From IMG/VR virus record IMGVR_UViG_3300027921_000114: a DNA stretch of 64,000 bases, one strand, 5' to 3'. Below are positions 1 through 61,286 of this stretch, piece after piece; the stretch's first letter is position 1; the number at the start of each line of letters is the position of its first letter. The notes beneath the pieces are model-generated. The model was not told the origin of the DNA and ran no database searches. It saw only the letters and a program-made list of their open reading frames with translations. Made by a program: the position numbers and the translations under genes. The DNA comes from an uncultured virus (IMG/VR IMGVR_UViG_3300027921_000114) (taxonomy: Duplodnaviria; Heunggongvirae; Uroviricota; Caudoviricetes).

Positions 1-1
1 C

Positions 2-91
2 ACCTTTGCCGGGGCATTCAAGAAGAAACTGGGCCTGAACCTGATCTCGGAGAAGACCCAGGGCGGCGAGCGGGTCTATCGCGTAGGTTGA
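2..91 (+). CDS. 3' end of DUF3489-like protein (partial)
   Basis: TFAGAFKKKLGLNLISEKTQGGERVYRVG* matches the C-terminus of 56651..57166. Confidence 0.85.
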   Translation, partial: TFAGAFKKKLGLNLISEKTQGGERVYRVG

Positions 92-346: not shown

Positions 347-377
347 GCTTGGCTTCTCAATCACACAGCGCGTTCAT
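347..377 (+). promoter_or_regulatory. bipartite motif copy 1 (putative promoter)
   Basis: GCTTGGCTT-CTCAATCAC-ACAGCGCGTTCAT, 33 nt before ATG 411. Confidence 0.75.
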
Positions 378-410
378 GGGGGCGTCATCCACGTCCCCAG
401 GAGCCACCAG

Positions 411-551
411 ATGGACTTCCACCTTTACAAAGCCACGCGCGCCGACGGCACGGTGTACTTCTTTCACCATCGCAGCATGGAGGAGGCCAAGGCCTTCGCC
501 AGCGATGCGGTCAATGTCATCGATTGCCATAGCCCAGTGGATGCGCAATGA
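411..551 (+). CDS. small hypothetical protein (46 aa, absent from ORF track)
   Basis: AGGAG RBS; MDFHLYKATRADGTVYFFHHRSMEEAKAF...; ATGA overlap with 548. Confidence 0.65.
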   Translation: MDFHLYKATRADGTVYFFHHRSMEEAKAFASDAVNVIDCHSPVDAQ

Positions 552-805
552 ACAGCATCGACATCCTGGGGCAAAAACTCGGTACAGCCGCCCTGACTAC
601 CTTGGTGCGCCTGTGCCCCGAGATCAGGACCGCCAGCCCGGCGCGACAGGAGGCCGCGTGTGCCGCGATGCGCGCCAAGGCTGGGGAAGCCATCGACGAG
701 TTGCTGGAGGACGCCAAGGCCGCGCCCTGGCTGGCGGAGGTTGCCTTTGCCAGCGCGGTGCTGACCCTCGCCAACGAGGGCATCAAGGTGTTGCGGGGCT
801 GCTGA
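548..805 (+). CDS. hypothetical protein (85 aa)
   Basis: Translationally coupled to 411..551. Confidence 0.7.
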   Translation: MNSIDILGQKLGTAALTTLVRLCPEIRTASPARQEAACAAMRAKAGEAIDELLEDAKAAPWLAEVAFASAVLTLANEGIKVLRGC

Positions 806-833
806 TCAGCACTCCGGGAAAGCGGGTGAATGC

Positions 834-864
834 GCTTGGCTTTACAAGCACACAGCGCGTTCAT
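834..864 (+). promoter_or_regulatory. bipartite motif copy 2
   Basis: GCTTGGCTT-TACAAGCAC-ACAGCGCGTTCAT, 34 nt before ATG 899. Confidence 0.75.
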
Positions 865-898
865 CCTGGCATCGCCAGACTGAATCCAGGAGCACCCC

Positions 899-1273
899 AT
901 GAGCATCACGCTGCAGATCGACCGCCAGCAGGACATCAACCTCAACTACAACAACCGCAACGCCGCCCTCGTCCTGGGCCTGTTGAATATTGATGTCGAG
1001 GCCGGCTTCGGGCGCATCGCCTTGACGGAAATTCCCAAGGCCCGACGCGCCATCCTCGTGGCACTCAATGGCGCGACACCGTTGCCCAGCGTCACGCAGG
1101 AAGTCGATTTTGCAACCACCGTGATTGACCAGGCCAGCATGCCGACCATCAGCAGGTCGCTGCGTTACCTCGATCCCGGCATTGACCAGGAGGGCGTTGA
1201 GCGCCGCCTACGCGAGGTGGCCACCTTGTTGGCGCAGGCCAGCGCACTGCAATCCGATGTGTCCTGGTTCTGA
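899..1273 (+). CDS. hypothetical protein (124 aa)
   Basis: AGGAG RBS, follows motif copy 2. Confidence 0.75.
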   Translation: MSITLQIDRQQDINLNYNNRNAALVLGLLNIDVEAGFGRIALTEIPKARRAILVALNGATPLPSVTQEVDFATTVIDQASMPTISRSLRYLDPGIDQEGVERRLREVATLLAQASALQSDVSWF

Positions 1274-1289
1274 ATTTCAATCGAAAGAA

Positions 1290-1320
1290 GCTTGGCTTCC
1301 CTGGCACACAGCGCGTTCAT
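1290..1320 (+). promoter_or_regulatory. bipartite motif copy 3
   Basis: GCTTGGCTT-CCCTGGCAC-ACAGCGCGTTCAT, 39 nt before ATG 1360. Confidence 0.75.
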
Positions 1321-1359
1321 ACAGATGTCGATTACCCCCAACGCAACAGGAGAACCGCC

Positions 1360-1719
1360 ATGACCACCATGACCATCAGCATCGAACGTACCCCTCGCAC
1401 CCTGAACTTCGGCGGCACCGCCATCGAGGTCGAGGAGTTGGGCGTCCGACTGCCCTTTGCCCGCAAACCAGTCGACCTCAGCGAGGTGGGCGGCAATGGG
1501 CAAACCAGGGTTTACATCACCGAAATCAAGGAATTGACCCCGGCCGAATACGACACCTTTGCCCGCAGTCTGCTGGTCTCGCGCGATTGGCTGCGCGGCA
1601 AAGGCGGTGGCATTGGCGACGGCTCCCTCTGCGTGGAGGTCACCGCACCGGGCCGCCCCTACCTTTACGTAAACCCCGAGGGCAGCGATTACGCCCGCTA
1701 CGTGGCACGCCTTGGTTGA
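1360..1719 (+). CDS. hypothetical phage protein (DUF6329-like)
   Basis: AGGAG RBS; C-terminal YVNPEGSDYARYV motif recalled from this family. Confidence 0.7.
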   Translation: MTTMTISIERTPRTLNFGGTAIEVEELGVRLPFARKPVDLSEVGGNGQTRVYITEIKELTPAEYDTFARSLLVSRDWLRGKGGGIGDGSLCVEVTAPGRPYLYVNPEGSDYARYVARLG

Positions 1720-1749
1720 TCGAGAAAGATTGAAAATGAAGCCAGAATT

Positions 1750-1780
1750 GCTTGGCTTCTCAATCGCACAGCGCGTTCAT
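1750..1780 (+). promoter_or_regulatory. bipartite motif copy 4
   Basis: GCTTGGCTT-CTCAATCGC-ACAGCGCGTTCAT, 36 nt before ATG 1817. Confidence 0.75.
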
Positions 1781-1816: not shown

Positions 1817-2185
1817 ATGACCACCACCAACCTTACCCCCGCCACCCAGAACGACGCCTGGGGATTTTTTGGCACGATGAACGAACACGCCGAAGCAGCT
1901 TGGCCGATCGCGATGCGCGCGGTTGCCGAGGCCACCGGCCAGTCGCTGGAAACGGTCCGGATCTTCATGGACAGCCGCCACGGGCGCCATTTCGCCGACA
2001 GCGTCCTTAACCAGATGCACCATGGCGCGAACATCGACGATGCCATCAACGCTGCCACGCAAGAGTGGATGGGCTGGACGATCGGGCGTATTACCTGCAA
2101 GGAATACGGGATCCCGCGCGGGATGCCTTACCTCACCGGGTTTGTGATTCACACCGAGATCACCGACGAAGCACTCGCCGCCTGA
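1817..2185 (+). CDS. conserved hypothetical protein (122 aa)
   Basis: AGGAG RBS; clear homologue at 57264..57632 (PATQN..WGF.GTMNE, DSRHGRHFAD). Confidence 0.85.
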   Translation: MTTTNLTPATQNDAWGFFGTMNEHAEAAWPIAMRAVAEATGQSLETVRIFMDSRHGRHFADSVLNQMHHGANIDDAINAATQEWMGWTIGRITCKEYGIPRGMPYLTGFVIHTEITDEALAA

Positions 2186-3441
2186 TCGAACGCAGCATCA
2201 AAGGCCACCCCATCCGACTGGCGGGTGGCTCGGCCGCCGGCAAACTCCTGCCAGCGGCGAACGATAACGTCGCAATACTTCGGATCGAGTTCGATGAGCC
2301 GGGCGCGGCGGCCCGACTTCTCGGCGGCAATCATTGTCGTCCCAGACCCGCCGAAGGCATCCAGCACCACATCCCCAGGGCGGCTTGAGTTGCGGATCGC
2401 CCGCTCCACCAGTTCCACCGGCTTCATGGTCGGGTGTAAATCGTTCTTGTGCGGTTTCTTGATCTGCCAGACGTCGCCCTGGTCGCGGTCGCCGCACCAG
2501 TGGCGCTTGCCACCCTCCGGCCAACCATACAGGATCGGCTCGAACTGACGCTGGTAGTCGGCGTGGCCCAGGGTGAACGTGTTCTTGGCCCAGATGATGA
2601 ACGTGGACCACTTGCCTCCGGCGGCGCGGAAGGCGGATTGCAGGGTGTCGAGCTCCGACGATGACATGGCGATGTAGACCGCGCCCTGGCAATGCGCCAG
2701 GGCCGGTGTCAGTGCCGCCAGCAGGAAATCGTAAAAGCCATCGCCCAGGTTGTCGTTCAGGATCGGGCGGGATTTCAGGCCAACCCGGCCGCGCAGCTTG
2801 TCCTTGGCGGTGTTGGCGTAGTCCACGTTGTACGGTGGGTCTTGCCAGATCATGTCGGCAAGGGTGTCGCCCAGCAGGGCGGCGTAGCTGCCGGCATCGG
2901 TGGCATCGCCACAGAGCACGCGATGGTCGCCACAGATCCAGATGTCGCCCGGGCACGATACCGCTGACCCGGAGGACTCCGGCACCGCGTCCTCGTCGGT
3001 CCGTCCCTCGGTTGAGGTTTCTTCGCCTGCCAAAAGATCGGCCAGCGCGTCGGCGTCGAAACCGGTGAGCGACAGATCGAAGTTGTCGTCCTGGAGGGCC
3101 GCCAGTTCCACCTGGAGCATCGCCTCGTCCCAGCCGGCGTTCTCAGCGATGCGGTTGTCCGCAATCACCAGGGCGCGGCGCTGGGTAGGCGTGAGATGGT
3201 CGAGCACCACCACCGGCACGGTCGGGATGCCGAGCTTCTGGGCGGCGGCGAGCCGACCATGCCCTGCCACGATGATTCCGTCGCTGCCAGCGAGGATGGG
3301 ATTGGTGAAACCAAATTCAGCAATCGAGGCGGCGATCTGCGCGACCTGGGCGTCGGTATGGGTGCGTGCGTTCCGCGCATACGGCAGCAGTTTGCCGGTC
3401 GGCCACTGCTCGATCTTGTCGGCGAGCCAGGAGATGCTCAT
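2149..3441 (-). CDS. ParB-N-fused DNA amino-methyltransferase (DPPY)
   Basis: ParB-like NPIL..AGHGR N-terminus; DPPY; HPTMKP; DAFGGSGTT. Confidence 0.9.
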   Translation of the reverse strand: MSISWLADKIEQWPTGKLLPYARNARTHTDAQVAQIAASIAEFGFTNPILAGSDGIIVAGHGRLAAAQKLGIPTVPVVVLDHLTPTQRRALVIADNRIAENAGWDEAMLQVELAALQDDNFDLSLTGFDADALADLLAGEETSTEGRTDEDAVPESSGSAVSCPGDIWICGDHRVLCGDATDAGSYAALLGDTLADMIWQDPPYNVDYANTAKDKLRGRVGLKSRPILNDNLGDGFYDFLLAALTPALAHCQGAVYIAMSSSELDTLQSAFRAAGGKWSTFIIWAKNTFTLGHADYQRQFEPILYGWPEGGKRHWCGDRDQGDVWQIKKPHKNDLHPTMKPVELVERAIRNSSRPGDVVLDAFGGSGTTMIAAEKSGRRARLIELDPKYCDVIVRRWQEFAGGRATRQSDGVAFDAAFDQAASASSVISV

Positions 3442-5283: not shown

Positions 5284-5703
5284 TCATGGAGTCGGGGCAC
5301 TCGCGAAACGTCCAGCTCGAAGTGGGATGTGTCGATTCAGGTTGTCGGCGACGACCCGCAACGCTCGCTGCCAGCGCCGCCACGCCGTTGTGCGGTCGCA
5401 GCCGATGCGCCGACAGATGTCCTTCCATTCGTATTGCTTCGCGCGCATCCAGATCAGGTGGCGCTGCTCCTCCTCCAGCCATTGCACCCAGCGCATGGCT
5501 TCCATCATCCGATCGATTGCCTCGGGTGTGGGCGGCAGAGGCCGGTACTCGTAATCCTCGCCGGCGAAGGTTTCCCACTCCTTGCGCGCGAAGGCAGGCC
5601 AGACGTTGAAGTAGCCCTGCACCCTGACGGGTGGCAGTCGCCGCCCCGTCTCGGCCGCCTCGGAGAAGCGTGCCGCCACGTCATCCATCGTCCATTTAGC
5701 CAT
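5284..5703 (-). CDS. DUF6362-like HTH protein, putative late-gene regulator
   Basis: C-terminal sigma-region-4-like HTH (WKDICRRIGCDRTTAWRRW); sits in the Q-gene position. Confidence 0.75.
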   Translation of the reverse strand: MAKWTMDDVAARFSEAAETGRRLPPVRVQGYFNVWPAFARKEWETFAGEDYEYRPLPPTPEAIDRMMEAMRWVQWLEEEQRHLIWMRAKQYEWKDICRRIGCDRTTAWRRWQRALRVVADNLNRHIPLRAGRFASAPTP

Positions 5704-14530: not shown

Positions 14531-15538
14531 TCAGTCGAGGCAGAAGCCGTACTTACCCTTTTGCGGATTGCAGATGTATTCCTTCCACTCGTCATTTCCA
14601 CTGAAGATGTTCTGCATTCGCAGACTCTTGCCGACCTGCTTGTCGGGATAAGCTGCCGCGAGGATCTCGCCGGCATCCAGCAACCAGCGGTCGAGTCTGG
14701 CCTGCTCGTACATGTACCTGACGGCGGCAGCTTGGCGGACCCCCTTGATGGGCCAGGGTTTCTTCTTGGTGCGGATGGTCAGTACGTTGCCAGCCTCATC
14801 AAAATGGACTGGCGATACTGGCGGCAATACTCCGTCAGCGGGCAAGCTCAAAATGCGATGCAGAAGGGTCATGTCGATGCAGGGCTGTGGAACGTAGTCC
14901 ACCAACACCTGTTGCATGGTCGCGAACCGGTAACTGCGGGGAGGCCGGATGAAGGCCGGTAGCGGCACCCCGGACGTGAGGATCAATCCCTGCTCGGGCA
15001 CTGCCGTAGACTGAAAGTGGCGAAACACCTGTTCGACTGTTTCGGCCAGTGCACGGGTGAACCAGATATCGACCATCGCCGGGCCGATGCGGGCCTTGCC
15101 CAGATGCCAGAGCACCCCCTGGATTGCGGGGTGTTCGATACCATTCCTCAACACCTGCGGTATTTCCAGCAGGTCGGCGATCACATTGAGCAACTTGGTC
15201 GGCGACACAGCGTAGATCGCCACCCTCTCGGCCGGAATGTACTTTCGCCGGAAAGTCTCGGGGCAACGGTAGTGGCAGCGACTCGGATCGTCGTCCTCGG
15301 TGAGTTCCACTTGCACGCGGTCCCCGTCGCAAGGAGCCGGATAGTGGCCGGCGTAGCCGATGCTCTCCGTCCACTCGCCGATGTCGGGTGCGGTCAAGGA
15401 CGTTCTGCCGATGACGTCCCAACCGGGAACACCTTGCTGGTGCTGGCCTTCCAGATCGGAGATCGGCTGGTTCGATCGCTCGAACAGATCGATCAGATCA
15501 AGCAGCGATCGGGTCGGCAACCGCTTCGACGACATCAC
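14531..15538 (-). CDS. hypothetical protein, possible C-terminal winged HTH
   Basis: 335 aa ORF overlapping the upstream gene; fold assignment is inference. Confidence 0.75.
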   Translation of the reverse strand: MMSSKRLPTRSLLDLIDLFERSNQPISDLEGQHQQGVPGWDVIGRTSLTAPDIGEWTESIGYAGHYPAPCDGDRVQVELTEDDDPSRCHYRCPETFRRKYIPAERVAIYAVSPTKLLNVIADLLEIPQVLRNGIEHPAIQGVLWHLGKARIGPAMVDIWFTRALAETVEQVFRHFQSTAVPEQGLILTSGVPLPAFIRPPRSYRFATMQQVLVDYVPQPCIDMTLLHRILSLPADGVLPPVSPVHFDEAGNVLTIRTKKKPWPIKGVRQAAAVRYMYEQARLDRWLLDAGEILAAAYPDKQVGKSLRMQNIFSGNDEWKEYICNPQKGKYGFCLD

Positions 15539-16727
15539 CGATCTCCTTCACCAGGTGCCACTTGGCAAGAAGCCGGTCGCAGAGTGCCCGATCCTTTTCC
15601 CGCTTGGTCTTGATGTTGCACAGGTTGTCCTCGCGCAGGACGATGGGGATCGTTCGCGCCCGTTCCTTGCCGACCTTCCTGGTGCGGACGGAAATCTTGG
15701 CGTGGTTCAGGTGATGATGACGAAAATCAAACGTGGAACTGATCAGCGACCTGGAGGCGGTATAGATGTCATCGTTATCCCTCGCCCCGATCTTCACGAG
15801 CAGGGATCGATGGTCCGAAATCGTGTAGCCGAGTTCGATTACCTTCGCCGAGGCCACGTTCTCCCCGGAGACGTCGAAATGGCGAGGGGCAGCAAGGCTC
15901 TGGTAGTCGTACTGCTTCAATGGAATCTTGGTTCCGGTAATGGGCGACTTCAGCAAACAGTCGGCGACGATGCGCGCCAGTGCCTCACGACCGTCAGTAT
16001 CCTTGGACAGGACCTCCAGATGTCCGTTGGCCGGCTCATAGGTGATGTGGGATGAGACGGCCCGTATCACCTCCTGCGAAACCAGTTCACTGGCCTGGAC
16101 GCAGTCGATGATTTCCGGCGGTCGATTGTGATGGACGCTGATCTGATAGAGATCGACGTCCTCTCCAGTATGGGTATCCGGGCGCAACCGCTTGAATATC
16201 TGGACCGCCACGGCGTCTTCCGCACAACCTATCTGCGCGGCAATGGCCTGGTGGAAAGAGAGCCGTGATGGTTCATCATCCATCACGGTCAGGTTCTTGG
16301 GCGCGATGAATCCGGAGTAGCAGGACACGTTTTGCCGGAACACATCGGCTTGTCTGGCGTTCAGTGCTTCCTCGAAGAGTCCGGCCTCGTTAAGGTAAAA
16401 CCACAAGGCACGTTCGTATTGATTGTTGATCGCCTGGAATTCCTTCAGGCTTTCCTCATCGAATATGCCATCACGAAAGCCGTCGATCACATCCTGGCCG
16501 GGGCCATCGGACAGCAGAGCAATACGCTCGGCCACTTCTTCCAGTTGTTGCCGTTCGCTTACCCCGAGCAAGGAGAGAGCTGCAGCCATCCCCTCTCGTT
16601 GCTCGCGCTTGCCCTGCTTCTTGTCCAGTTCAGGCAAAGCCACCTTGAACTTGTCGACCATGAAATTGCGGAAGACGGCCGGCGACATGTGTCCGAGCAG
16701 TTTGGATAGGTTTTCAGCGTCGTTCAT
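15498..16727 (-). CDS. hypothetical protein (409 aa)
   Basis: Long ORF; GGAG before MNDAENL. Confidence 0.75.
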   Translation of the reverse strand: MNDAENLSKLLGHMSPAVFRNFMVDKFKVALPELDKKQGKREQREGMAAALSLLGVSERQQLEEVAERIALLSDGPGQDVIDGFRDGIFDEESLKEFQAINNQYERALWFYLNEAGLFEEALNARQADVFRQNVSCYSGFIAPKNLTVMDDEPSRLSFHQAIAAQIGCAEDAVAVQIFKRLRPDTHTGEDVDLYQISVHHNRPPEIIDCVQASELVSQEVIRAVSSHITYEPANGHLEVLSKDTDGREALARIVADCLLKSPITGTKIPLKQYDYQSLAAPRHFDVSGENVASAKVIELGYTISDHRSLLVKIGARDNDDIYTASRSLISSTFDFRHHHLNHAKISVRTRKVGKERARTIPIVLREDNLCNIKTKREKDRALCDRLLAKWHLVKEIGDVVEAVADPIAA

Positions 16728-16791
16728 GACTTCGAGTGCTCCGTGTTGCAAGACAACTTCCTCCCGGCCAGGCCCCCTTAGGCCCTCACCG

Positions 16792-17295
16792 TCATATCGC
16801 GGCAAATTGAGCCAGCCGCTTCTTGATTTCGGCATGGGGCACATGTGTTCGCGGATCCTCCAACATGCCCTTCAGCGTATTAGCGAGAACGACCTTGCGG
16901 ACGATGCGATGTTCGGCGAACCGGTCGATCAGCCACAGAATTCCGTGGACCTCGACCTGTTCCTGTTCGGCGAGCGTGCGCATGCGTTTGTCGCCCGTCA
17001 GCAGCGGCCAGTCGTTTGTCACGGCGAGAGTGACGGCGAAGCAGTCATGGATCGTCAGCTTGGGCTTGGCAGCTTGGTAAGCAACAGCCTGGGCCATGCC
17101 ATCCGGGTCCAGGGTCTCCACCCGCAGACCAAGACCCTTCAGTTCTGCCCGGTCGATCCCACCAAGATCAATGAGTTCATCGTCGTACAGGGCATCGGGG
17201 ATGGCGAACTCGAACGGCAACTTGAAGAGATCTTCAAGCAGCGACCATTTCGCCAGATCAATGAGAATGGATGCATCGCTCACCAATACCCGCAC
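16792..17295 (-). CDS. PIN-domain protein (DUF3368-like)
   Basis: VSDASILID, DCFA, LLTGD acidic PIN pattern. Confidence 0.8.
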   Translation of the reverse strand: MRVLVSDASILIDLAKWSLLEDLFKLPFEFAIPDALYDDELIDLGGIDRAELKGLGLRVETLDPDGMAQAVAYQAAKPKLTIHDCFAVTLAVTNDWPLLTGDKRMRTLAEQEQVEVHGILWLIDRFAEHRIVRKVVLANTLKGMLEDPRTHVPHAEIKKRLAQFAAI

Positions 17296-17301
17296 AATGG
17301 C

Positions 17302-18354
17302 TCACTCCACCGGGCCCGACATGATTCGGCCCACCTCGGTGGTGCTCTTGCGCAGGAGTTCCGCAGCTTTCGGTAGCGAAATGTTGTCTTCTGCCAGGGC
17401 GCGGAGTACTAGGCGCTGGAAGCGCTTGGGTTCCTCGTTCTCCGTCAGCGGTTCAGGCTCGGCCTTGCGCCACGTCCGTCCGATGCCCCGAAACACCACC
17501 TGCATCGTGCTCTCGCCGATGACGTTGAGATCACGCAGACGGACCATCAGCGCGGCGGCGCTGACGCCATACATGCGCTTGATCTCGATGATCTCGGCGT
17601 AGCCAAAGGCATGACGTCGCTGGCCGACTTCGAACAACAGGTCGTCGCGGGGCATCAGGAGCGCGCTGGCAAAACGCTGGCAGGCCTTCTCCTCGTCCAG
17701 TTCGCCCACGATCTTCATGACCATGTGGCCGAGCTCGTGCGCCAGGGTGAAGCGCCGGCGTTCCGCCGATTTCGCCACCGAGCCGACGATGACCGGAACA
17801 GGTTCCTTGTCGGGCCTGGCCACGCGACAGGTCAGCCCGTCGACGGAAAGAGGGAAATCCAGCTTGAGTACCTTGATGCCATGTTCCTCGAGCAGTTCGG
17901 TCATGTTCTGGATGGCGTCGCCACCCAGGTTCCAGGCTTTGCGCAGGTGTCCCGCTGCCGTTTCCGCGTCATCCAGGGTGGCGACCTTGTAGGGGGCGCC
18001 CTTGGGTTTGTCCCATTCGTGGCTGCCGATCTCCAGTACATCCTCGACCAGCAGGTAACGGTCGAGGTGGTCCACCACCGCCGCCTCGACCATGGCTCGC
18101 TCCTGGGCCTTGGTCTTGGATAACTTGCGGAACTCGACGGCCTCGAGACGAATTTCAGAAGGGCTGAACAGGTAACTCAGGGGTACATCGAGTGCCTTGG
18201 CGAGTTTCAGCGCCGTGGTCGAGCCGGGCAGCATTTCGCCGCGCTCGTAACGGCCGATGGCCTGGGCGGTGACGGCGCGATCGATGGCATCGGCCAGTCC
18301 CCGTAGGGAGAGGCCGGCACGATTACGAGCCAACTTCAATCTTTCACCGAACAT
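17302..18354 (-). CDS. XRE HTH fused to ImmA/IrrE metallopeptidase
   Basis: N-terminal XRE HTH; FTLAHELGH HExxH. Confidence 0.9.
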   Translation of the reverse strand: MFGERLKLARNRAGLSLRGLADAIDRAVTAQAIGRYERGEMLPGSTTALKLAKALDVPLSYLFSPSEIRLEAVEFRKLSKTKAQERAMVEAAVVDHLDRYLLVEDVLEIGSHEWDKPKGAPYKVATLDDAETAAGHLRKAWNLGGDAIQNMTELLEEHGIKVLKLDFPLSVDGLTCRVARPDKEPVPVIVGSVAKSAERRRFTLAHELGHMVMKIVGELDEEKACQRFASALLMPRDDLLFEVGQRRHAFGYAEIIEIKRMYGVSAAALMVRLRDLNVIGESTMQVVFRGIGRTWRKAEPEPLTENEEPKRFQRLVLRALAEDNISLPKAAELLRKSTTEVGRIMSGPVE

Positions 18355-18550: not shown

Positions 18551-18766
18551 ATGAGCACTACAAACATTCACGATATTGCGCACGCCGGGCCTGATGATCG
18601 CCTTCACGAAGTCGCCACGCTCCTGGCCCAGGGCCTGCAACGGGCGCGGGCGAAGGGGGCGGCTTCGATATTGGCCCAGCCCGCCGAGAGCGAGTTTGAC
18701 CTTGGCTTCCCTGGCGGGCAGCGCGTTCATGCCAACCCATCCATGACATCCGGAGAACGCGCATGA
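18551..18766 (+). CDS. small hypothetical protein (71 aa)
   Basis: GGAG RBS; ATGA overlap with the DUF2924-like gene. Confidence 0.6.
   Translation: MSTTNIHDIAHAGPDDRLHEVATLLAQGLQRARAKGAASILAQPAESEFDLGFPGGQRVHANPSMTSGERA
18700..18730 (+). promoter_or_regulatory. bipartite motif copy 5 (before integrase operon)
   Basis: CCTTGGCTT-CCCTGGCGG-GCAGCGCGTTCAT, 32 nt before ATG 18763. Confidence 0.7.
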
Positions 18767-19235
18767 ATCAATCGATTTCGGTCGCCGCACAGGTCGCGCG
18801 GCTGCCTGCCCTGCCGATGGACGAGTTGTGGGCGCTGTGGGATGAGTTCTTCCCGCAGCGTCCGTGCAACCACCATCGCGATTACGTCGCCTCGCGCGTC
18901 GCCTACAAACTGCAGGAGCGCGCCTGCGGGGCGCTCTCCCCCACCGTGCGGCGCAAGCTGGAGAAGATCGGTGAGACCGGCGCGGTGCCCAACCAGAAGC
19001 GCCGGGGCGAGATTCAACTGGCCGCCGGGGCGGTGCTGGTGCGTGAATTCGATGGCATCGAGCACCGGGTGACGGCTCTGCCGGATGGCCAGTTCGAATA
19101 CCTGGGCCAGCGCTTTCGCAGCCTGTCGGCGGTAGCCCGCACCATTTCCGGAACCCCGTGGTCGGGACCGGTTTTCTTCGGACTGAAATCCGGCAAGGCG
19201 AAGCGCACTGCCGCGAAGGGACAGGAGCGGCGGCC

Positions 19236-19239
<4 letters not shown>
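18763..19239 (+). CDS. DUF2924-like protein
   Basis: LVREFDG..H.V, SLSAVARTISGT.WSGP.FFGL. Confidence 0.85.
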
Positions 19240-20596
<1,357 letters not shown>

Positions 20597-20600
<4 letters not shown>

Positions 20601-21031
20601 ACAAGACCGGGATTCACATAGAGCGCACCGGCATGCCCAGGAAATTCGCCGATGGCGACCGAACCGTGACCTTCGTGCCACTGGCGATCAAGCGGCGCGG
20701 GGTGCGCAAGCTGCTGCTGCCCCCTACCGATACCGCAGCGGCCATGCCCAAACCCCGGCATGACCTGCCGTTGCTCAAGGCCCTGGGCAAGGCGTTCTAC
20801 TGGCAGAAGCTGATCGACCGGGGCGTGGTGGAAGACGCCGCCGCCATCGCCAGGCAGGAACGGCTGGACCGCACCTGGGTGAACGAGACGCTGCGCCTCA
20901 CCTTGCTGGCGCCGGAGATCGTGACGGCGATCCTCGATGGGCGACAGCCGCGCACCCTGTCCTTGCAAACGGTCAGGCGGGGTGTGCCCGTGGACTGGGC
21001 CGAACAGCGCGCCCAGTACGATCTGACGTAA
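20597..21031 (+). CDS. recombinase-associated hypothetical protein (HTH-like)
   Basis: Coupled to the recombinase; LRLTLLAPEIV.AILDG.QP. Confidence 0.75.
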
Positions 21032-21058: not shown

Positions 21059-22012
21059 TCAGTCCCGCTTGGACCGGATGATCTGGTCGAGCTGATGGCC
21101 GTCGTTGTCGGTGTTGATCTGCACCCACAGCGGCAGGTGGTCGGAGAGTTGGTAGGTGAAGTCATCCTTGCTCATGCCTGGGAACAGCGGCTCGGTTCCC
21201 CCTGTATAGAAATCAAGCACACCGCCTTTGTTCATGAAACTGTCCGCGTAGATTGGGTAATGCACGATCTGGTCGTAGCGCTTGTCTTTCGCCAGGTTGG
21301 TGCCGAAGGCCCCCTTGCGCAGCGCGGTGGGGGCGACCAGGCCCTTGCCGGTCAGGGCTTCGTACATGGCGGAGGTTTCGATGTTGAAATCGCCGGTGAC
21401 GATGAAATCCTTGTCCTCGACATGCTTCTGCCGGCGCTTGAGATCCAGCCAGTCGGCGAAGGAACGGATTTCCGCAGTGCGCGCCTCTTTGCTGTCGCCC
21501 CAGCGGATGTGGGCGGTGGCCACCACGAAATCGAAGTTGCCGGCGCTGAACGACGCCATGTAGGGCGACCGCCACCAGGTGAATTCGGGCACGTATTCCC
21601 GGCCCGACTTCTTGCGCGGCGGGTTCGCGGCGGCGGCCAGGCCGGTGAAGGCGACCGCGCGCTTGTCGTAGAGGAAGCCGATGCGCTCCATGTTGCCGCC
21701 GGCGTCGGGGATGATGTCGGAATAGACCGCCCGCCAGTAGGGCCCGAGGATCGGCAGCACCCGGCCCAGGTCGGTCAGGTCGTCGCGCAGTTCGACGAGG
21801 CTGATCAGGTCGAACTGGCCGAGGATCTCGGCGATGTAGTGGATGGCCGCTTCGGAGCGCCGGCGCCTGCCGAACTCGCGGATGTTCCAGGTACACAGGT
21901 TGAGGGTCTCGTCGAGCTTGGAAGATGGAATCTTCGCGGCATCGATCCGTTTTCTGAGTTCTTGCAGTCCTTCGGCGATCTGCGCCGAGATCTTTCCGTG
22001 GAACATGTCCAT
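21059..22012 (-). CDS. endonuclease/exonuclease/phosphatase (EEP) family protein
   Basis: TWNI, GDFN, YDQI, SDHLP. Confidence 0.9.
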   Translation of the reverse strand: MDMFHGKISAQIAEGLQELRKRIDAAKIPSSKLDETLNLCTWNIREFGRRRRSEAAIHYIAEILGQFDLISLVELRDDLTDLGRVLPILGPYWRAVYSDIIPDAGGNMERIGFLYDKRAVAFTGLAAAANPPRKKSGREYVPEFTWWRSPYMASFSAGNFDFVVATAHIRWGDSKEARTAEIRSFADWLDLKRRQKHVEDKDFIVTGDFNIETSAMYEALTGKGLVAPTALRKGAFGTNLAKDKRYDQIVHYPIYADSFMNKGGVLDFYTGGTEPLFPGMSKDDFTYQLSDHLPLWVQINTDNDGHQLDQIIRSKRD

Positions 22013-22290
22013 GCCTCCCCATGCGGGTTCATGACGGTCGGTGCGAGGTTTGACGAAAAACTACGCTGCAGCGATGGTAGCGGCAAACCGATCATCCCGG
22101 CCTTCGCGCAACGCATTGAAGAATCAAGCGATCTGCGAAGGGTGCCGCGAGGGATTTTGACGGTATTTTTTGAGAAAAGAGGGCAGTAGAGAGCCAAATT
22201 CTGGTTGAAGCCCGCACCATCAACAACCTGGATAGTCGTCGCAGAATGGCGGCCAAGGGCGCGAGGGTTGGGGGTTCCGCAGAAATGACA

Positions 22291-22314
22291 AGGCCAACCG
22301 AGAGTGGTTGGCCT
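22291..22314 (-). terminator. hairpin downstream of the tRNA-like 3' end
   Basis: AGGCCAACC-N6-GGTTGGCCT. Confidence 0.55.
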
Positions 22315-22322
22315 ATGTAAAG

Positions 22323-22357
22323 TGGTGGTGGATCACGGAACCGAACCCGCGTCCGCA
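22323..22357 (-). other. att-like junction resembling a tmRNA/tRNA 3' end
   Basis: - strand TGCGGACGCGGGTTCGGTTCCGTGATCCACCACCA; lies between the recombinase module of A and the cargo of B. Confidence 0.65.
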
Positions 22358-22639
22358 TCCCGACAAGGATAGCAAGGTTTTGATCTTGAGGGCGTGGATT
22401 CGAGTATTTGGCCGAATTCAATCCGCCGATGCATAGCCTGTGAGGGCGCATCGCCCGCGAAACTTGGGCTTCCACGGCCCAATCGTCGAACGCCAGTTCG
22501 ATCCCCTGTTTGACAACCGAACTGCCTCCCCATTGGCGCGCACTCCGACGAACAAGGTACTGGTCGATGACGCTGTAATGTGGGAAAATTGGCTAAACTT
22601 GGCAAACGGAATGCACCGCAGGCCAACTTGGTAGAAAAA

Positions 22640-22843
22640 ATGATGACCGACACTGATGGCGAGATTCTGACGCTCGACGAAGTCGCTGCGTACCTAAAAG
22701 CTGGCAAGCGAACTGTTTATCGGCTTGCTCAGAAAGGCGAGATACCGGCGTTTAAGCTGGGTGGTACGTGGCGTTTCCGACGCTCGGAGTTAGATGCATG
22801 GATTGCCGAGAGCATCCGCCAAAAGACGGACGAGGCAAAGTGA
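22640..22843 (+). CDS. excisionase-like HTH_17 regulator
   Basis: LTLDEVAAYLK..TVYRLA..GEIPAFK.GG.WRF. Confidence 0.85.
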   Translation: MMTDTDGEILTLDEVAAYLKAGKRTVYRLAQKGEIPAFKLGGTWRFRRSELDAWIAESIRQKTDEAK

Positions 22844-22907
22844 ATACAAACCGCGCCGGGCAAGAGGCGGCAATCACATGCCGGAACAAGAATAAGGGGG
22901 AAATCCA

Positions 22908-25781
22908 TTGGTGACACAGCAGCTACTCACGCCCTATCAAAGCCAGTATTACGCGTGGCTGCTGACGCGCCGTGCGGCCAGCGATTCGGTGGAATCGTTG
23001 GCGTCCACTCTGGTGGACTCACAGGTCGATCTCAACCCCCACCAGGTGGAAGCAGCATTGTTCGCCTGCACGAACCCACTTTCTCGCGGTGTGATCCTGG
23101 CCGACGAGGTTGGACTCGGGAAGACGATTGAAGCTGGTCTTGTCATTTCGCAGCGTTGGGCCGAGCGCCGTCGACGCCTACTTATCATCGTTCCAGCTAA
23201 CTTGCGCAAGCAATGGCACCAAGAACTTCAGGACAAATTCAATCTGCAGAGCCTGATTCTTGAGGCCAAAAACTACAACACGATTCGTAAGCAGGAAAAC
23301 CAGAACCCCTTCTTGATGCCGTCCGGGCCGGTCATCTGCTCGTACCAATTTGCAAAGGCCAAGGCTGCGGACATCAAGGATATCAACTGGGATCTGGTCG
23401 TGCTCGACGAAGCACACCGGCTGCGCAATGTTTACAAGACAAGCAACGTCATCGCCAAAACCATCAAGGAAGCTCTCGCGCACGTTCATTCAAAGGTGCT
23501 GTTAACGGCAACGCCACTGCAGAACTCCTTGCTGGAACTCTACGGGTTGGTGAGCATGATCGACGACCGTGTGTTCGGTGATCTCGATAGCTTTCGTGCG
23601 CAATTCACTCAGCCAAACAGGGAGCAGGCCTTCGCAGCGCTGCGCTCCCGCATTGCGCCAATCTGCAAGCGCACCTTGCGTCGGCAGGTGCAGCAGTACG
23701 TTCCCTACACGGCCCGTCGCGCCATCGTTGAAGAATTTACACCGTCGACCGAGGAGCGCGAGCTATCTGCCCTCGTCGCTGATTACCTACGTCGCCCGAA
23801 TCTAAAAGCGCTGCCGGATGGGCAGCGGCAACTGATCTCGTTGGTGTTGTGGAAGTTGCTCGCGTCGTCAACACACGCAATCGCTGGCGCATTGGAAACG
23901 ATGGCCAAGCGTCTGCAAGGGGTGCTCGACGACACCACGAATATTCCCGACCTCGCCGAAGCGTTGGACGAGGACTATGAGTCGCTTGATGAAACCGCCG
24001 ATGAGTGGAATGACCAGGATTCCGGCAGCGCGCCCCCGGCGAGGAGTGAGCGCGATGCCGTGGCTCAGGAAATTGAGGAGCTTCGGCACTTCAAATCACT
24101 GGCGACCAACATCCGCGACAACGCCAAGGGCAAAGCACTTCTGACAGCACTGGAGCGCGCATTTGCTGAACTGGAACGGTTGGGCGCGCCCAAAAAAGCG
24201 ATCATTTTCACGGAGTCCCGGCGCACCCAAGAGTACCTGTTGTCGCTGCTGGCGGACACACACTACGGCGAGGGCATCGTCCTCTTCAATGGCACAAACA
24301 GTGATGCTCGAGCTCAGGCGGTATATAAGGATTGGCTGGTGCGGCACAAGGGTACCGACAAAATCTCTGGTTCCAAGACGGCCGATACGCGTGCGGCCTT
24401 GGTCGAGCATTTCCAGGAGCGCGGCACCGTCATGATCGCGACCGAGGCGGGCGCGGAAGGCATCAACCTCCAGTTCTGCTCCTTGGTCATTAATTACGAT
24501 CTGCCCTGGAATCCGCAGCGGATCGAACAGCGCATTGGTCGCTGCCATCGGTACGGGCAGAAGTTCGACGTGGTGGTGGTCAATTTTGTCGACCGCAGCA
24601 ATGAAGCCGATGCGCGCGTGTACGAATTGCTGGCGCAGAAATTCCAGCTCTTTGAAGGCGTTTTTGGTGCCAGCGATGAAGTGCTTGGAGCAATCGGCTC
24701 CGGCGTGGACTTCGAGCGGCGCATCGCTGACATCTACCAAAACTGTCGCGACCCGGAAGCCATCAAGAGCAGTTTCGAGCAATTGCAGCTCGACCTGTCC
24801 GGTGAGATCAATGAGGCAATGGTCAAGACCCGCCAGCTTCTACTGGAGAATTTCGACGAAGAGGTGCAGGACAAACTTCGGATTCGTGCCGACGACAGCA
24901 GCAAAGCCCGGAACCGATACGAGCGGATGCTGATGGATTTGACCAGGGCCGAGCTTGGCGATCACGCTGAGTTCGATGTCGACGGATTCAGGTTGCTGCA
25001 TTCGCCCTGCGCAGACCTTGAGGGAATTGCTCTCGGGCGCTACGAACTGCCCCGCCGCAGCGGCGACTCCCATCTCTATCGTATCGGCCACCCGCTCGCC
25101 GCATGGGTTACCCAACAAGCAATAAGCCGACAACTGCCCGGCAGCAGGCTCGTTTTCGATTACGACGGTTACGGTACGCAGGTCAGCACGCTCAAAGCAC
25201 ATCGGGGACAAACCGGATGGCTCACGGTCAGCCTTATTTCCGTTGATGCGCTGGGCCAGCAGGAACAGCATCTGATCGTCGCCGCCACCACCGCCCAAGG
25301 CGTTGCACTGGCCGAGGATGATCCAGAAAAATTGCTGCGCTTGCCCGCGCACCAAAAAGCGGCTGGTCTGTTTTCTGCGACTGACGGCACACTCGCTGCG
25401 GATCTGGCAAGCCGGAAGGTTCAAGTCCTGCGCGAGATCAATCAACGCAATCTCGGTTACTTTGAGCAGGAAGTTGAAAAACTGGATGCTTGGGCCGACG
25501 ACCTGAAGTTGGGCTTAGAACAGGAAATCAAGGGCATCGACTTTGAGATTAAGGAAGTACGGCGCACAGCGGCGATCTCACCCACCCTCGAAGAAAAGCT
25601 GTCCCATCAAAAGCGCCAGCGGGAGCTCGAAACCAAGCGCAGCAAGCTCCGGCGCGAACTGTTTACCCGTCAAGACGAAGTCGAAGCGCAGCGCAACGAC
25701 CTCATCACCCAGCTTGAAGTCCAGCTGCAGCAGCAGGTTGAGGAACAAACGCTCTTCACCATCGAATGGGAGCTCCTGTGA
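22908..25781 (+). CDS. SNF2-family helicase/ATPase
   Basis: LADEVGLGKT, DEAH, TATP, EGINLQ, QRIGR..RYGQ. Confidence 0.9.
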   Translation: MVTQQLLTPYQSQYYAWLLTRRAASDSVESLASTLVDSQVDLNPHQVEAALFACTNPLSRGVILADEVGLGKTIEAGLVISQRWAERRRRLLIIVPANLRKQWHQELQDKFNLQSLILEAKNYNTIRKQENQNPFLMPSGPVICSYQFAKAKAADIKDINWDLVVLDEAHRLRNVYKTSNVIAKTIKEALAHVHSKVLLTATPLQNSLLELYGLVSMIDDRVFGDLDSFRAQFTQPNREQAFAALRSRIAPICKRTLRRQVQQYVPYTARRAIVEEFTPSTEERELSALVADYLRRPNLKALPDGQRQLISLVLWKLLASSTHAIAGALETMAKRLQGVLDDTTNIPDLAEALDEDYESLDETADEWNDQDSGSAPPARSERDAVAQEIEELRHFKSLATNIRDNAKGKALLTALERAFAELERLGAPKKAIIFTESRRTQEYLLSLLADTHYGEGIVLFNGTNSDARAQAVYKDWLVRHKGTDKISGSKTADTRAALVEHFQERGTVMIATEAGAEGINLQFCSLVINYDLPWNPQRIEQRIGRCHRYGQKFDVVVVNFVDRSNEADARVYELLAQKFQLFEGVFGASDEVLGAIGSGVDFERRIADIYQNCRDPEAIKSSFEQLQLDLSGEINEAMVKTRQLLLENFDEEVQDKLRIRADDSSKARNRYERMLMDLTRAELGDHAEFDVDGFRLLHSPCADLEGIALGRYELPRRSGDSHLYRIGHPLAAWVTQQAISRQLPGSRLVFDYDGYGTQVSTLKAHRGQTGWLTVSLISVDALGQQEQHLIVAATTAQGVALAEDDPEKLLRLPAHQKAAGLFSATDGTLAADLASRKVQVLREINQRNLGYFEQEVEKLDAWADDLKLGLEQEIKGIDFEIKEVRRTAAISPTLEEKLSHQKRQRELETKRSKLRRELFTRQDEVEAQRNDLITQLEVQLQQQVEEQTLFTIEWELL

Positions 25782-25871
25782 TGACGCGGCGGAAGGCAAA
25801 CGGAAAAATGGTGGGCCGTCTTGTTCACCCATGCCCCACTTTTGCATCAATCTTTTTCAGGACTAGAAACC

Positions 25872-26927
25872 ATGAAGATTAATTTTCTAGTTCAAACGCC
25901 AAAAAGCCCCGCCGCTTCGACACTGGGACATTTGCTACAAGAGAAGGCCCGAAGCGGAAAATATGAAGAAGCGCTAATTTCTGTCGCGTATATGACTGTT
26001 GCCGGCGTGCGGTCACTTCTGTCCGGCTTCTCGCCGCTACCACCGCATCGAAGCAAATGGCTGATTGGTCTGGATGACTTTGTGACGCAGCCGGGTGCCC
26101 TTGATGTGATCTTCGCAATTCCTGGCGCAGAAGTTCGGGTGATCTCCTATTCATCGTTGGGCGTCAGATTTCACCCGAAGGTCTACATACTTCAAAAGCA
26201 ATCTGCTCCGAAGATAGGATTCACGATTGTCGGGTCTGCTAACTTGACCGCACAGGCGCTCGCAGGAAATGGTGAAGCCAGCGCCATTCTTCAATACGAA
26301 AACGCTTCAGACTTTCTCCAGGTTCGCGAAATGTGGGATGCACTCTGGAGCCAAGGCCATAAACCTACTAACAAAGAGCTCGTTGCCTACAAAGCAAAGT
26401 ACGACTTAATTCAAAAGAGTCGGCCTAAGCAGATAAAGACAAAACGAGCATCAGCAGGGATTGTTATCCTTGCATCGGATGATGCGGAGCTCGATCCAGG
26501 TGCCGCCAGACTCTGTTGGATTGAATGTGGGCACATCACGGCAATGGGCCGAGAAATTGAGCTGAAGGCGGAGCAAGGAATTTTCTTCGGACTCAACCCT
26601 ACTGGTGAGCAACCAAAGCATTTTACCTTTGTTGTCTCATCCGGAATTTCCGTCCAACTTCGAATGAAATTTCAAGGCAACCATATGTGGCGACTTCAAC
26701 TCACTCGTGACGTGCCAGAAGTTGCCTCTGGCTTACGGCCAGCTTTACCTGATGGCTCGCTTGGACGGTCACCATATGCGGCAATTATTGAACGCACTGA
26801 TAAACACGATGTTTTCACACTTCGATTCATCGACCTTAAATCGATTGAATTCAAGAAAATCGTGAAGAAATCCATTGAATTGGGTACCTACGGAAAAACA
26901 ACAGCAAGGCAGTACGGATGGTGCTGA
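25872..26927 (+). CDS. PLD-family nuclease (BfiI/NgoFVII-like)
   Basis: FHPKVY and GSANLT; separate C-terminal domain. Confidence 0.75.
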   Translation: MKINFLVQTPKSPAASTLGHLLQEKARSGKYEEALISVAYMTVAGVRSLLSGFSPLPPHRSKWLIGLDDFVTQPGALDVIFAIPGAEVRVISYSSLGVRFHPKVYILQKQSAPKIGFTIVGSANLTAQALAGNGEASAILQYENASDFLQVREMWDALWSQGHKPTNKELVAYKAKYDLIQKSRPKQIKTKRASAGIVILASDDAELDPGAARLCWIECGHITAMGREIELKAEQGIFFGLNPTGEQPKHFTFVVSSGISVQLRMKFQGNHMWRLQLTRDVPEVASGLRPALPDGSLGRSPYAAIIERTDKHDVFTLRFIDLKSIEFKKIVKKSIELGTYGKTTARQYGWC

Positions 26928-26942
26928 CTTCAGGGAATAAAT

Positions 26943-31366: not shown

Positions 31367-31430
31367 TTAAGCGTTGCTTATGTAGACATCTACACAGATG
31401 TGATCACTACCCACCTCCGAGACTCATACC

Positions 31431-32387: not shown

Positions 32388-32465
32388 AGAATTCGAATGA
32401 TTTCGAGTTCATAAATTGATCCAGACTAGTTGAATGGACTTTAACTTCCTAAGAATGAGGTGTGG

Positions 32466-33296: not shown

Positions 33297-33732
33297 CGGA
33301 AGCCTTGATGTGCGTGACACGCGCACCGCAATAGTCCTTGACGGCGCTTGCCACCATTGAGCGGTGGCAGAAATTCGAGTCGGCCTCGAAACAAAGCAAC
33401 GCACAGTTTGCCGATGCGGCCAACGCTGAAAGCTCGGCGATGGCATCGTCTTGCGTCTTGAGGTGCTTCAGAAAGCCTTCGGTGTACCGCTTCCAGTTGC
33501 CATCCTCACGGTAGCGATCACGAACCAGCTTCGGGCAGCCCAGATCCACCATGTGGACGTACTCGCGACCGGATAGATTCAGCACGCTGGCAAGGGACTT
33601 CTTTGAGAAGCCGGGCTTGCGCGACAGGGGTAGCTCGCGGACGTCGACAATCGTGTCAATGCCGTGCTCGGTGAGCAGCGACATAAACGCGTCGATATCA
33701 AGTCCTTCGTAGCCTATTGTGAAAACATTCAT
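33250..33732 (-). CDS. DUF488 family protein
   Basis: TIGYEG, DVRE.P.SRKPGFSK, LLCFE..CHR. Confidence 0.85.
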   Translation of the reverse strand: MNVFTIGYEGLDIDAFMSLLTEHGIDTIVDVRELPLSRKPGFSKKSLASVLNLSGREYVHMVDLGCPKLVRDRYREDGNWKRYTEGFLKHLKTQDDAIAELSALAASANCALLCFEADSNFCHRSMVASAVKDYCGARVTHIKASAKKASPVASLQLAFA

Positions 33733-56244: not shown

Positions 56245-56284
56245 CGGCCTCTTCAATCATTTGTTCGTCATTCCAGTGGATTCA

Positions 56285-56315
56285 GCTTGGCTTCCATCTG
56301 GAACAGCGCGTTCAT
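56285..56315 (+). promoter_or_regulatory. bipartite motif copy 6
   Basis: GCTTGGCTT-CCATCTGGA-ACAGCGCGTTCAT, 34 nt before ATG 56350. Confidence 0.75.
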
Positions 56316-56556: not shown

Positions 56557-56585
56557 TCGAAAGACAGCGAAGCCAAGCACGAAAC

Positions 56586-56616
56586 GCTTGGCTTCAGCCC
56601 CAAACAGCGCGTTCAT
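56586..56616 (+). promoter_or_regulatory. bipartite motif copy 7
   Basis: GCTTGGCTT-CAGCCCCAA-ACAGCGCGTTCAT, 34 nt before ATG 56651. Confidence 0.75.
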
Positions 56617-57166: not shown

Positions 57167-57196
57167 TCCAGAAAGATTGAAAATAAAGCCAAGATC

Positions 57197-57227
57197 GCTT
57201 GGCTTCTCAATCGAACAGCGCGTTACT
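57197..57227 (+). promoter_or_regulatory. bipartite motif copy 8
   Basis: GCTTGGCTT-CTCAATCGA-ACAGCGCGTTACT, 36 nt before ATG 57264. Confidence 0.75.
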
Positions 57228-60673: not shown

Positions 60674-61090
60674 TTACCCTGCGTGACTCACGATTTTGGA
60701 AGGTGAGCAACGACCTTCGCTGTTGAGATTGGTCGCCACGATCTCCAGCGCCTTCTGCCAGCGCCGCCACGCGGTGGTGCGGTCGCAGGCAAAGCGGATC
60801 GTGATGTCACGCCATCCGTAACGCTTGGCCCGCATCCACACGAGGTGACGCTGCTCGACCTCAAGCCACTGCACCCAGCGCATCGTCTCCAGCATCCGAT
60901 CAATGTCGACGGGGCTGGGTGGGAACGGTCGGTACTCACGGGCGTCTGATGAGAAGGCTTCCCACTCCGTGCGCACGAAGGCAGGCCACGTATTGAAGTA
61001 GCCCTGGACACGGACAGGGGGCAGGCGTCGGCCAGTGACCGCAGCATCCTCGAAGCGTGCAGCCACGTCGTCTATCGTCCACTCAGTCAT
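60674..61090 (-). CDS. DUF6362-like HTH protein
   Basis: Homologue of 5284..5703. Confidence 0.75.
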   Translation of the reverse strand: MTEWTIDDVAARFEDAAVTGRRLPPVRVQGYFNTWPAFVRTEWEAFSSDAREYRPFPPSPVDIDRMLETMRWVQWLEVEQRHLVWMRAKRYGWRDITIRFACDRTTAWRRWQKALEIVATNLNSEGRCSPSKIVSHAG

Positions 61091-61286
61091 GACGTGCCCC
61101 TCCGTACAGGCGTTCGCCAATGCGGCGCACGATCTCCCGCTCAATGAAGTCCAATCGCTCGTCAGACTCGTTGACCACCAAGATGTGCTGGTCACGCCAG
61201 CCGTTGCGTTTCATCGCATCCAGATCTGTGGTGTCTGGTTGCAGCCGACCCAAGGGGCAGCGGTATTGAGGTGTTGGAACCTTCAT
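61083..61286 (-). CDS. hypothetical protein
   Basis: Homologue of 5696..5911. Confidence 0.8.
   Translation of the reverse strand: MKVPTPQYRCPLGRLQPDTTDLDAMKRNGWRDQHILVVNESDERLDFIEREIVRRIGERLYGGARHD

Follow-up and report, generated by a model that had tools for sequence, protein, structure and literature searches.

A repeated bipartite motif as a candidate promoter type of AcaML1-like temperate phages

What does a short DNA signal do when it recurs, always in the same orientation, ahead of small genes in a prophage? This question is raised by a 64,000-nucleotide stretch of DNA from an uncultured virus of the Caudoviricetes (IMG/VR record IMGVR_UViG_3300027921_000114; "the window" below means this whole stretch), which contains eight copies of a bipartite 31-bp motif. 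A preliminary description, made from the sequence, proposed that the copies represent a phage-specific promoter class. Our analysis indicates that the motif is real, strongly conserved, and private to phages, and that it is best read as a non-canonical promoter or operator heading portable cassettes and the integrase operon. Most likely, it is the phages' own type of promoter and also a seam at which gene cassettes are swapped.

Motif copies in the window and in related phages

Searching the window with the pattern GCTTGGCTT-N9-ACAGCGCGTTCAT returns exactly the eight plus-strand sites reported before, six of them exact and two with two mismatches (Table 1), and the pattern has no match in any of 100 shuffled sequences. 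The geometry given for them, TTGGCT-N17-GTTCAT, is correct. The distance from the motif end to the ATG, put earlier at 32–39 nt, reads 33, 34, 39, 36, 32, 34, 34, and 36 nt for copies 1 through 8, and a ribosome-binding site precedes the ATG. We did have to correct the ATG coordinates in the second prophage, which were one base too high (the true starts are 56350, 56651, and 57264). The pyrimidine-purine step at +6/+7 after CAT is present in seven of the eight copies, the copy at 18700 being the exception. A looser pattern, TTG-N18-GCGTNNAT, recovers seven copies plus a chance site at 35190 and nothing more in the window (0.48 expected), so the lytic operons have no motif copy.

Pfam and PHROGs scans show that the window consists of two related AcaML1-like prophages with all lytic genes on the minus strand. 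Prophage A (1 to ~22,000) carries ParB-methylases, DUF6362, a RuvC-like resolvase, a primase-helicase, and other replication genes, followed by the plus-strand integration operon. Prophage B (~34,000 to 64,000) carries tail, lambda-type head, and terminase genes, then a plus-strand array, then methylases and DUF6362. The motif heads genes for DUF6900, DUF3489, a conserved 122-amino acid (aa) protein, and four smaller proteins of no known kind, as well as the integration operon. Four plus-strand genes lack a motif (107–343, 548–805, the recombinase gene, and 20597–21031), and because each overlaps the preceding gene or lies at most 15 nt behind it, one motif stands at the head of every free-standing unit. 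The linkage of accessory genes to the integrase operon that had been noticed earlier is real and conserved, and it is found in phage AcaML1 as well. As for its extension to both prophages, the window shows the integrase operon of A (18763–21031), and B runs off the right end.

To follow the motif among relatives, we searched genome and viral sequence collections for exact matches to its core, CTTGGCTT-N10-CAGCGCGTT, which occurs in at least 137 genome stretches and at least 162 viral stretches. Among the matches listed, 44 loci in genomes and 79 in viral sequences have two or more copies (with overlapping loci each counted), and a single locus has copies on both strands. Named hosts belong mainly to Burkholderiales, Rhodocyclaceae, and Lysobacterales, with a few metagenome bins labeled Alphaproteobacteria; single matches in unrelated phyla are at about the chance level for 17 fixed bases in 596 Gb, which we estimate at ~70. 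Across 57 distinct viral contigs, genes downstream of the motif are without exception on its own strand (DUF3489 in 34 contigs, the 122-aa gene in 28, DUF6900 in 25, and DUF2924 in 16), and those for terminase, methylase, and DUF6362 are without exception on the other. The array sits behind tail genes in two of these contigs, and the four contigs without family genes are probably chance matches.

Phage AcaML1 of Acidithiobacillus caldus (JX507079), which is in culture, has four exact core copies on one strand, where 0.21 are expected, and it shares the layout of the window, with copies before small genes between methylases and terminase and before the Gp4/recombinase genes. These copies (3018–3044, 20437–20463, 21115–21141, and 22247–22273) lie inside or at the edge of annotated coding sequences (Gp5, Gp29, Gp30, and Gp33), which suggests that some annotated starts or small open reading frames (ORFs) of that record are wrong. 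Over all loci, 351 distinct motif-headed proteins fall into 39 clusters; they are mostly 40–180 aa long, and most have no Pfam family. The cargo of relatives includes a DUF932 protein (locus L075, 820–1809) and a KleA/KleC-like protein (locus L255, 660–881). Both families are known to occur in the leading regions of plasmids, a hint that the cassettes have anti-defense or establishment functions.

Table 1. Motif copies, hairpins, and associated genes in the window
Feature	Position	Strand	Remarks
Copy 1, exact	347..377	+	heads 46-aa gene 411-551 and overlapping 85-aa gene 548-805
Copy 2, exact	834..864	+	heads 124-aa gene 899-1273
Copy 3, exact	1290..1320	+	heads 119-aa gene 1360-1719; cargo family present in both motif classes
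Copy 4, exact	1750..1780	+	heads 122-aa gene 1817-2185 (phrog_8020)
Copy 5, 2 mismatches (C for G at base 1, G for A at base 19)	18700..18730	+	heads integration operon
Copy 6, exact	56285..56315	+	heads DUF6900 gene 56350-56557
Copy 7, exact	56586..56616	+	heads DUF3489 gene 56651-57166
Copy 8, 2 mismatches (GTTACT for GTTCAT at end)	57197..57227	+	heads 122-aa gene 57264-57633; orthologue of copy 4
Integration operon	18763-19239, 19236-20600, 20597-21031	+	DUF2924, serine recombinase, 144-aa gene
DUF3489 C-terminus, prophage A	1-91	+	followed after a 15-nt gap by 78-aa gene 107-343, which has no motif of its own
DUF6362 gene, prophage A	5284..5703	-	true start 5703, 139 aa; candidate regulator
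DUF6362 gene, prophage B	60674..61195	-	
Hairpin, block 1 of copy 4 with upstream inverted copy	1738..1759	-	terminator-like, tail ATTTTCAATC
Hairpin, block 1 of copy 7 with upstream inverted copy	56568..56596	-	terminator-like, 13 pairs
Hairpin, block 1 of copy 8 with upstream inverted copy	57185..57206	-	terminator-like, 9 pairs

Anatomy of the motif and its confinement to prophages

The consensus of 415 distinct instances is G-CTTGGCTT-C-N5-(C)GAA-CAGCGCGTT-CAT-N5-C-(G/A)-(T/C)-C, and the distance from CAT to a start codon preceded by a Shine-Dalgarno sequence peaks at 34–36 nt (211 of 415). Because this set was ascertained via the core itself, two unbiased checks of the geometry were made. 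Among 21 DUF2924 homologues found by protein, 15 carry the variant CTTG(G/A)C...GT(T/G/C)(C/A)AT at the same place, and three more have GGTTGC-N17-GTGCAT or GTCCAT with the identical 17-bp spacing. When a second phage set is anchored on GAAGCGTTCAT alone, CTTGGCTT appears at a fixed distance, with TT in 133 of 135, and a C-purine step is found at +6/+7. The geometry common to these sets is TTGnnn, 17 bp, GTnnAT, with G at -14, A at -8, T at -7, and T at -11. In one phage (record G013, 22072–24123), the array copies end in GTGAAT or GTCAAT and the integrase copy in GTTCAT; positions -10 and -9 thus tolerate change, and G at -12, T at -11, A at -8, and T at -7 are fixed.

The -35 element and the spacer resemble those of a sigma70 promoter. 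The -35 hexamer TTGGCT matches four of the six bases of TTGACA (relatives have TTGACT, TTGATG, or TTGCGA, with TTG near-invariant), and the spacer is 17 bp in both motif classes described below and upstream of distant DUF2924 genes, within the 16–18 bp of sigma70. An A at -11 is essential for sigma70 promoters. GTTCAT has the T at -7 but a T at -11, and no register of the motif has both A at -11 and T at -7; a scan with the sigma70 consensus returns no site in either array of the window.

The motif is also confined to phages. The host-wide counts were made on five genomes (21.3 Mb) other than the window's own, and exact copies occur only in one or two prophage neighborhoods. Relaxing the pattern to TTGGC-N16-GCGTTCAT still gives prophage copies only, in 6.9 Mb. 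Comparison thus supports the name phage-specific promoter class: the motif keeps a fixed distance and orientation in hundreds of relatives, heads every array transcription unit, is absent from host chromosomes outside prophages, and combines a sigma70-like -35 and spacer with a -10 element that has no A at -11. That it is read by an activator or alternative sigma factor, the other part of that proposal, is something we infer.

Could host RNA polymerase alone read these sites, either through sigma70 tolerating GTTCAT or through a conserved host alternative sigma factor, with the strict conservation stemming from the copying of a single cassette junction and not from a phage factor? Such an ordinary early promoter would account for the TTG of the -35 element, the optimal 17-bp spacer, and the consensus A at -8 and T at -7, and the DUF932 and KleA-like cargo suggests immediate-early anti-defense genes. 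GAAC-N16-C(G/A)TC also resembles the promoters of extracytoplasmic function (ECF) sigma factors. The T4 PeSL promoters, which are discussed below, are sigma70 promoters (PMC2839356). However, a T replaces the essential A at -11 in every register and the sigma70 scan finds no site, host genomes have no copy outside prophages even under the relaxed pattern, the spacings misfit sigma32 and sigma54, and four spacer-proximal bases vary by class but not among the copies of one phage. We regard a purely host-read promoter as unlikely.

Other known signals were compared with the motif. ECF promoters have a GGAAC-like -35, a 16–17 nt spacer, and a CGT or GTC -10; two partial fits exist (TGGCT-N16-CGTT and GAAC-N16-C(G/A)(T/C)C), and in either the best-conserved bases of the motif would fall in the spacer. 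No two-domain ECF sigma factor was found in the window by Pfam and PHROGs. For a sigma54 promoter (GG-N10-GC, TGGCAC-N5-TTGC), the motif offers the TGGC, but the positions that follow 10 nt later are part of the variable spacer. Sigma32, sigma54, FliA, and LexA-box readings were judged not to fit on spacing or sequence. The consensus contains no TTGC-N6-TTGC repeat of the kind bound by lambda CII-type activators.

The -10 region can also be viewed as a partial palindrome, GAAC-N5-GTTC, and the motif is oriented, intergenic, and present in multiple copies. Its main role might therefore be to bind a phage repressor as an operator or roadblock, in the manner of the oriented stoperators of mycobacteriophage L5, with promoters lying elsewhere. 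Yet the motif comes first in every unit, even where it is the lone copy at the integrase operon or where divergent pairs are only ~120 nt apart, and a promoter is needed at these places. Its fixed distance to the start codon is not required by a roadblock, and it is absent from the lytic operons. Taken together, these features make a role mainly as an operator improbable.

We instead lean toward the view that the core belongs to a promoter type private to the AcaML1-like family of temperate phages, controlled by a phage factor and heading autonomous cassettes, and we consider this probable. In such a promoter, CTTGGCTT would be the -35 element, followed by the 17-bp spacer and the near-invariant proximal block GAA-CAGC-GCGTTCAT, and transcription would start at the conserved pyrimidine-purine step 6–7 nt behind CAT. 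Each copy would stand before a single self-contained cassette, which may be a small accessory gene or the DUF2924/serine-recombinase operon, and the motif-headed genes would for this reason form one regulon. Because the -10 element has no A at -11 and the whole 30 bp are conserved across host classes, we infer that the site is activated or repressed by a DNA-binding protein that the phage encodes.

Two specificity classes and candidate reader proteins

Whole-record searches of distant relatives brought out a second class of copies. Class B has nGAA-GCGTTCAT where class A, to which the window belongs, has CAGC-GCGTTCAT, and the two differ only at four bases, -18 to -15. We found class B in 94 viral stretches, where one phage may have as many as nine copies. 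The classes exclude each other: no locus in a non-redundant set of 123 combines them, 55 being purely class A, 45 purely class B, and the remaining 23 belonging to neither, and within a phage the four class-specific bases do not vary. Class B arrays are divergent, with one facing the methylases and the other running towards the terminase, and a hairpin lies between the last cassette and the terminase gene. At the class B locus L407 (11392–11435), this hairpin is GC-rich (CCCCAGCGCCC/GGGCGCTGGGG). In class A, no motif was found upstream of the terminase operon. The start of the small-terminase gene of prophage B (56244), which is divergent, is only 40 nt from copy 6, with a conserved CCTTCAATCATTTGTTCG element in the interval (56245–56284; also at related loci).

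Both prophages of the window carry the same specificity class, so cross-talk between them is plausible. The cross-regulation proposed earlier stays a prediction.

Which protein would read the motif? We consider two candidates the best: DUF3489, which is itself motif-headed and would be a tandem winged-helix protein, and DUF6362, which is sigma-region-4-like. The model of DUF3489 shows two winged helices and a linker (mean predicted local distance difference test score, pLDDT, 82), with matches of the MarR/ArsR type and the TFE/RPC34 type (E 0.01–0.15). In the model of DUF6362 (mean pLDDT 72), the C-terminal four helices match region 4 of ECF sigma factors (SigR, SigL, SigD, and sigmaE), with target TM-scores of 0.7–0.78 and weak Foldseek E-values of 0.4–2. 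An important caveat is that the Foldseek E-values are weak for both models (0.01–2), and it is the agreement among the top matches that supports the fold assignments; a sequence search of solved structures gave nothing useful for either protein. The two domains predicted in DUF3489 are unlike each other and would therefore suit an asymmetric bipartite site. Both proteins are encoded in all seven motif-bearing records that are at least 44% complete (whole records searched), and both are absent from two fragments and one chance-match record.

The two candidates named earlier remain good ones, but two other proposed regulators, 14531–15538 (335 aa) and 15498–16844 (448 aa), look unlikely: they occur in only four of 57 related contigs, beside an RmrA-like defense gene. 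That gene (17302–18354, minus strand) lies next to the integrase promoter region and encodes an XRE helix-turn-helix plus M78-peptidase protein matching RmrA of RosmerTA-type defense systems (E 3e-59); given this match, it is probably prophage cargo rather than a phage repressor. Its neighbors are 16792–17295 and 15498–16844. Between the prophages (22908–33732) lies a low-GC island (48–57% GC) with further defense genes: a DrmD-like SNF2 helicase (22908–25781, E 2e-197), a type III restriction enzyme (28631–31366, E 2e-209), and a PDC-M19 A/B candidate pair (32460–33296 and 33250–33732).

Several points weigh against a promoter controlled by a phage factor. The DUF932 and KleA-like cargo of relatives resembles early anti-defense genes, which are expected to fire from host polymerase alone. 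The uniformity of the motif within a phage could stem from gene conversion instead of a fitting reader protein. Both DUF3489 and DUF6362 keep their recognition helices conserved from one motif class to the other, so neither protein explains the four-base difference, and because both are family hallmarks, their co-occurrence with the motif cannot tell one from the other. Neither a complete sigma factor nor a phage RNA polymerase was found, and DUF6362 has a region-4-like domain only. Finally, RNA of relatives is represented by contigs of depth 2–17 (Logan) from two metatranscriptome runs of one sample, which show neither starts nor strand and so speak neither for nor against a start site; some of these contigs (241–451 and 326–467) span the motif instead of starting behind it, with DNA carry-over possible.

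A wider model is also conceivable, which we offer tentatively and consider rather doubtful in its entirety. In this model, the motif would be a private transcription code: a phage protein would read the bipartite signal, the code would have at least two exclusive classes, antisense terminators would wall off the late operon from early transcription, and the copies would be recombination seams of anti-defense cassettes. Since the classes are mutually exclusive, co-resident prophages of the same class would share a regulon and those of other classes would be insulated. The reader might be the two winged helices of DUF3489, each on one block, or DUF6362 replacing host -35 recognition.

Hairpins, cassette exchange, and known systems

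A portion of the copies is accompanied by a hairpin, formed by block 1 and an inverted copy immediately before it. Among 419 class A copies, 96 have a stem of at least 7 nt and 71 a stem of at least 8 nt, versus 2 and 0 of the latter in two controls. The T-rich tail of these hairpins lies on the strand opposite to the motif, and the three in the window that score as terminator-like on the minus strand (Table 1) could stop early minus-strand transcription before the late operon. In both prophages, the 3' ends of the 122-aa gene, the last to carry a motif, and the convergent ParB-methylase gene (2149–3441 in A) overlap by ~37 bp (2149–2185 and 57596–57633); their transcription must therefore collide there.

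These hairpins, together with the fixed position of the motif before the ribosome-binding site and the RNA-run contigs that span it, would also be expected if the motif acted within one long array transcript as an RNA-level signal for processing, stability, or translation. The hairpins are present in a minority of copies, however, and are terminator-like on the opposite strand. The two blocks are unable to pair with each other, Rfam gives no match at gathering score in the whole window, and the motif stands ahead of the gene that opens each unit. We consider an RNA-level function very improbable.

Comparing the prophages shows how the cassettes vary. Copies 4 and 8 are orthologous with their flanks included, and the four cassettes that lie between DUF3489 and the 122-aa gene in prophage A are all missing from prophage B. 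DNA contigs of relatives jump from 66 to 364, 81 to 364, 697 to 1750, and 796 to 1750, i.e., at motif copies, although these are contigs and not proof of events. The arrays sit between methylases and terminase as repeated units before small ORFs of a variable region. We propose that the repeated signal, often with its antisense terminator-like hairpin, would act as a homology patch for cassette exchange.

The cassette-like layout, the copy at the recombinase operon, and the loss of homology at 364 and 1750, inside or at the motif, could alternatively point to a site-specific recombination site, attC-like or the target of a serine recombinase, that mobilizes the cassettes. But the motif is not built as an inverted repeat, an array with direct repeats of such a site in working form would be deleted, and the position of the motif follows start codons and not cassette ends. 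Moreover, 31 bp of identity suffice for homologous exchange. We give a dedicated recombination site hardly any credence and return to the probable phage promoter that would double as a seam.

The motif marks a very widespread and barely studied prophage family, with hosts including Burkholderiales, Rhodocyclales, Lysobacterales, and Acidithiobacillus, in which conservation is higher over ~30 bp of regulatory DNA than in the proteins. In the literature searched, we found no mention of the motif, including the full string CAGCGCGTTCAT; among the matches listed, GCGTTCAT with phage and promoter gave primers and unrelated matches only. Also among the matches listed, papers citing AcaML1 do not mention the motif, and none is on promoters by title or abstract (for PMC5567305, this applies to the part of the article available). 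The papers found under the DUF names hold nothing about regulation. New here are the second class and its exclusivity, the divergent class B arrays, the antisense terminator reading, the two candidate folds, and the whole-genome restriction tests. If the motif is a private promoter, it would provide a one-line rule for finding the accessory or anti-defense cargo and the integrase operon of the family, as well as a testable pair of orthogonal promoter classes, and it predicts regulatory cross-talk between the two prophages of the window.

How does the motif compare with known systems? Lambda has a small set of CII-dependent promoters, pRE, pI, and paQ, which are weak, depend on the activator, and share one motif; one of them drives the integrase gene. 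The present motif likewise stands at the integrase operon, and the other class A copies point against the lytic operons. Unlike the lambda sites, it has no TTGC-N6-TTGC, no CII homologue was identified, and its conserved block covers the spacer and -10 and not the -35. Class B arrays point both ways, and in some contigs the integrase gene is co-directional with replication genes.

Several phages have promoter classes that depend on a phage factor, including the T4 middle (MotA/AsiA) and late (gp55/gp33) promoters and those served by SPO1 gp28 and gp33/34, Mu Mor/C, and P2 Ogr. None of their consensus sequences resembles the motif, and Pfam and PHROGs detect no homologue of these factors in the window. 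What the motif has in common with them is a long, phage-private consensus, absent from the host, that deviates from sigma70 at one element.

A further parallel in arrangement is the PeSL of T4-type phages, a promoter plus hairpin unit that is repeated before small non-essential genes of a hyperplastic region, where recombination shuffles the cassettes (Arbiol et al., 2010, PMC2839356). The phages studied here also have a short conserved unit repeated at the head of small genes in a variable region. PeSL are strong sigma70-like promoters of lytic myoviruses, whereas the motif is found in temperate phages, where it also stands before the integrase operon, and it has no A at -11. In contrast to that of PeSL, the hairpin of the motif accompanies only about a quarter of the copies and is terminator-like for the opposite strand. 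If the motif is indeed a private promoter, it would be a temperate-phage counterpart of T4 PeSL cassette shuffling.

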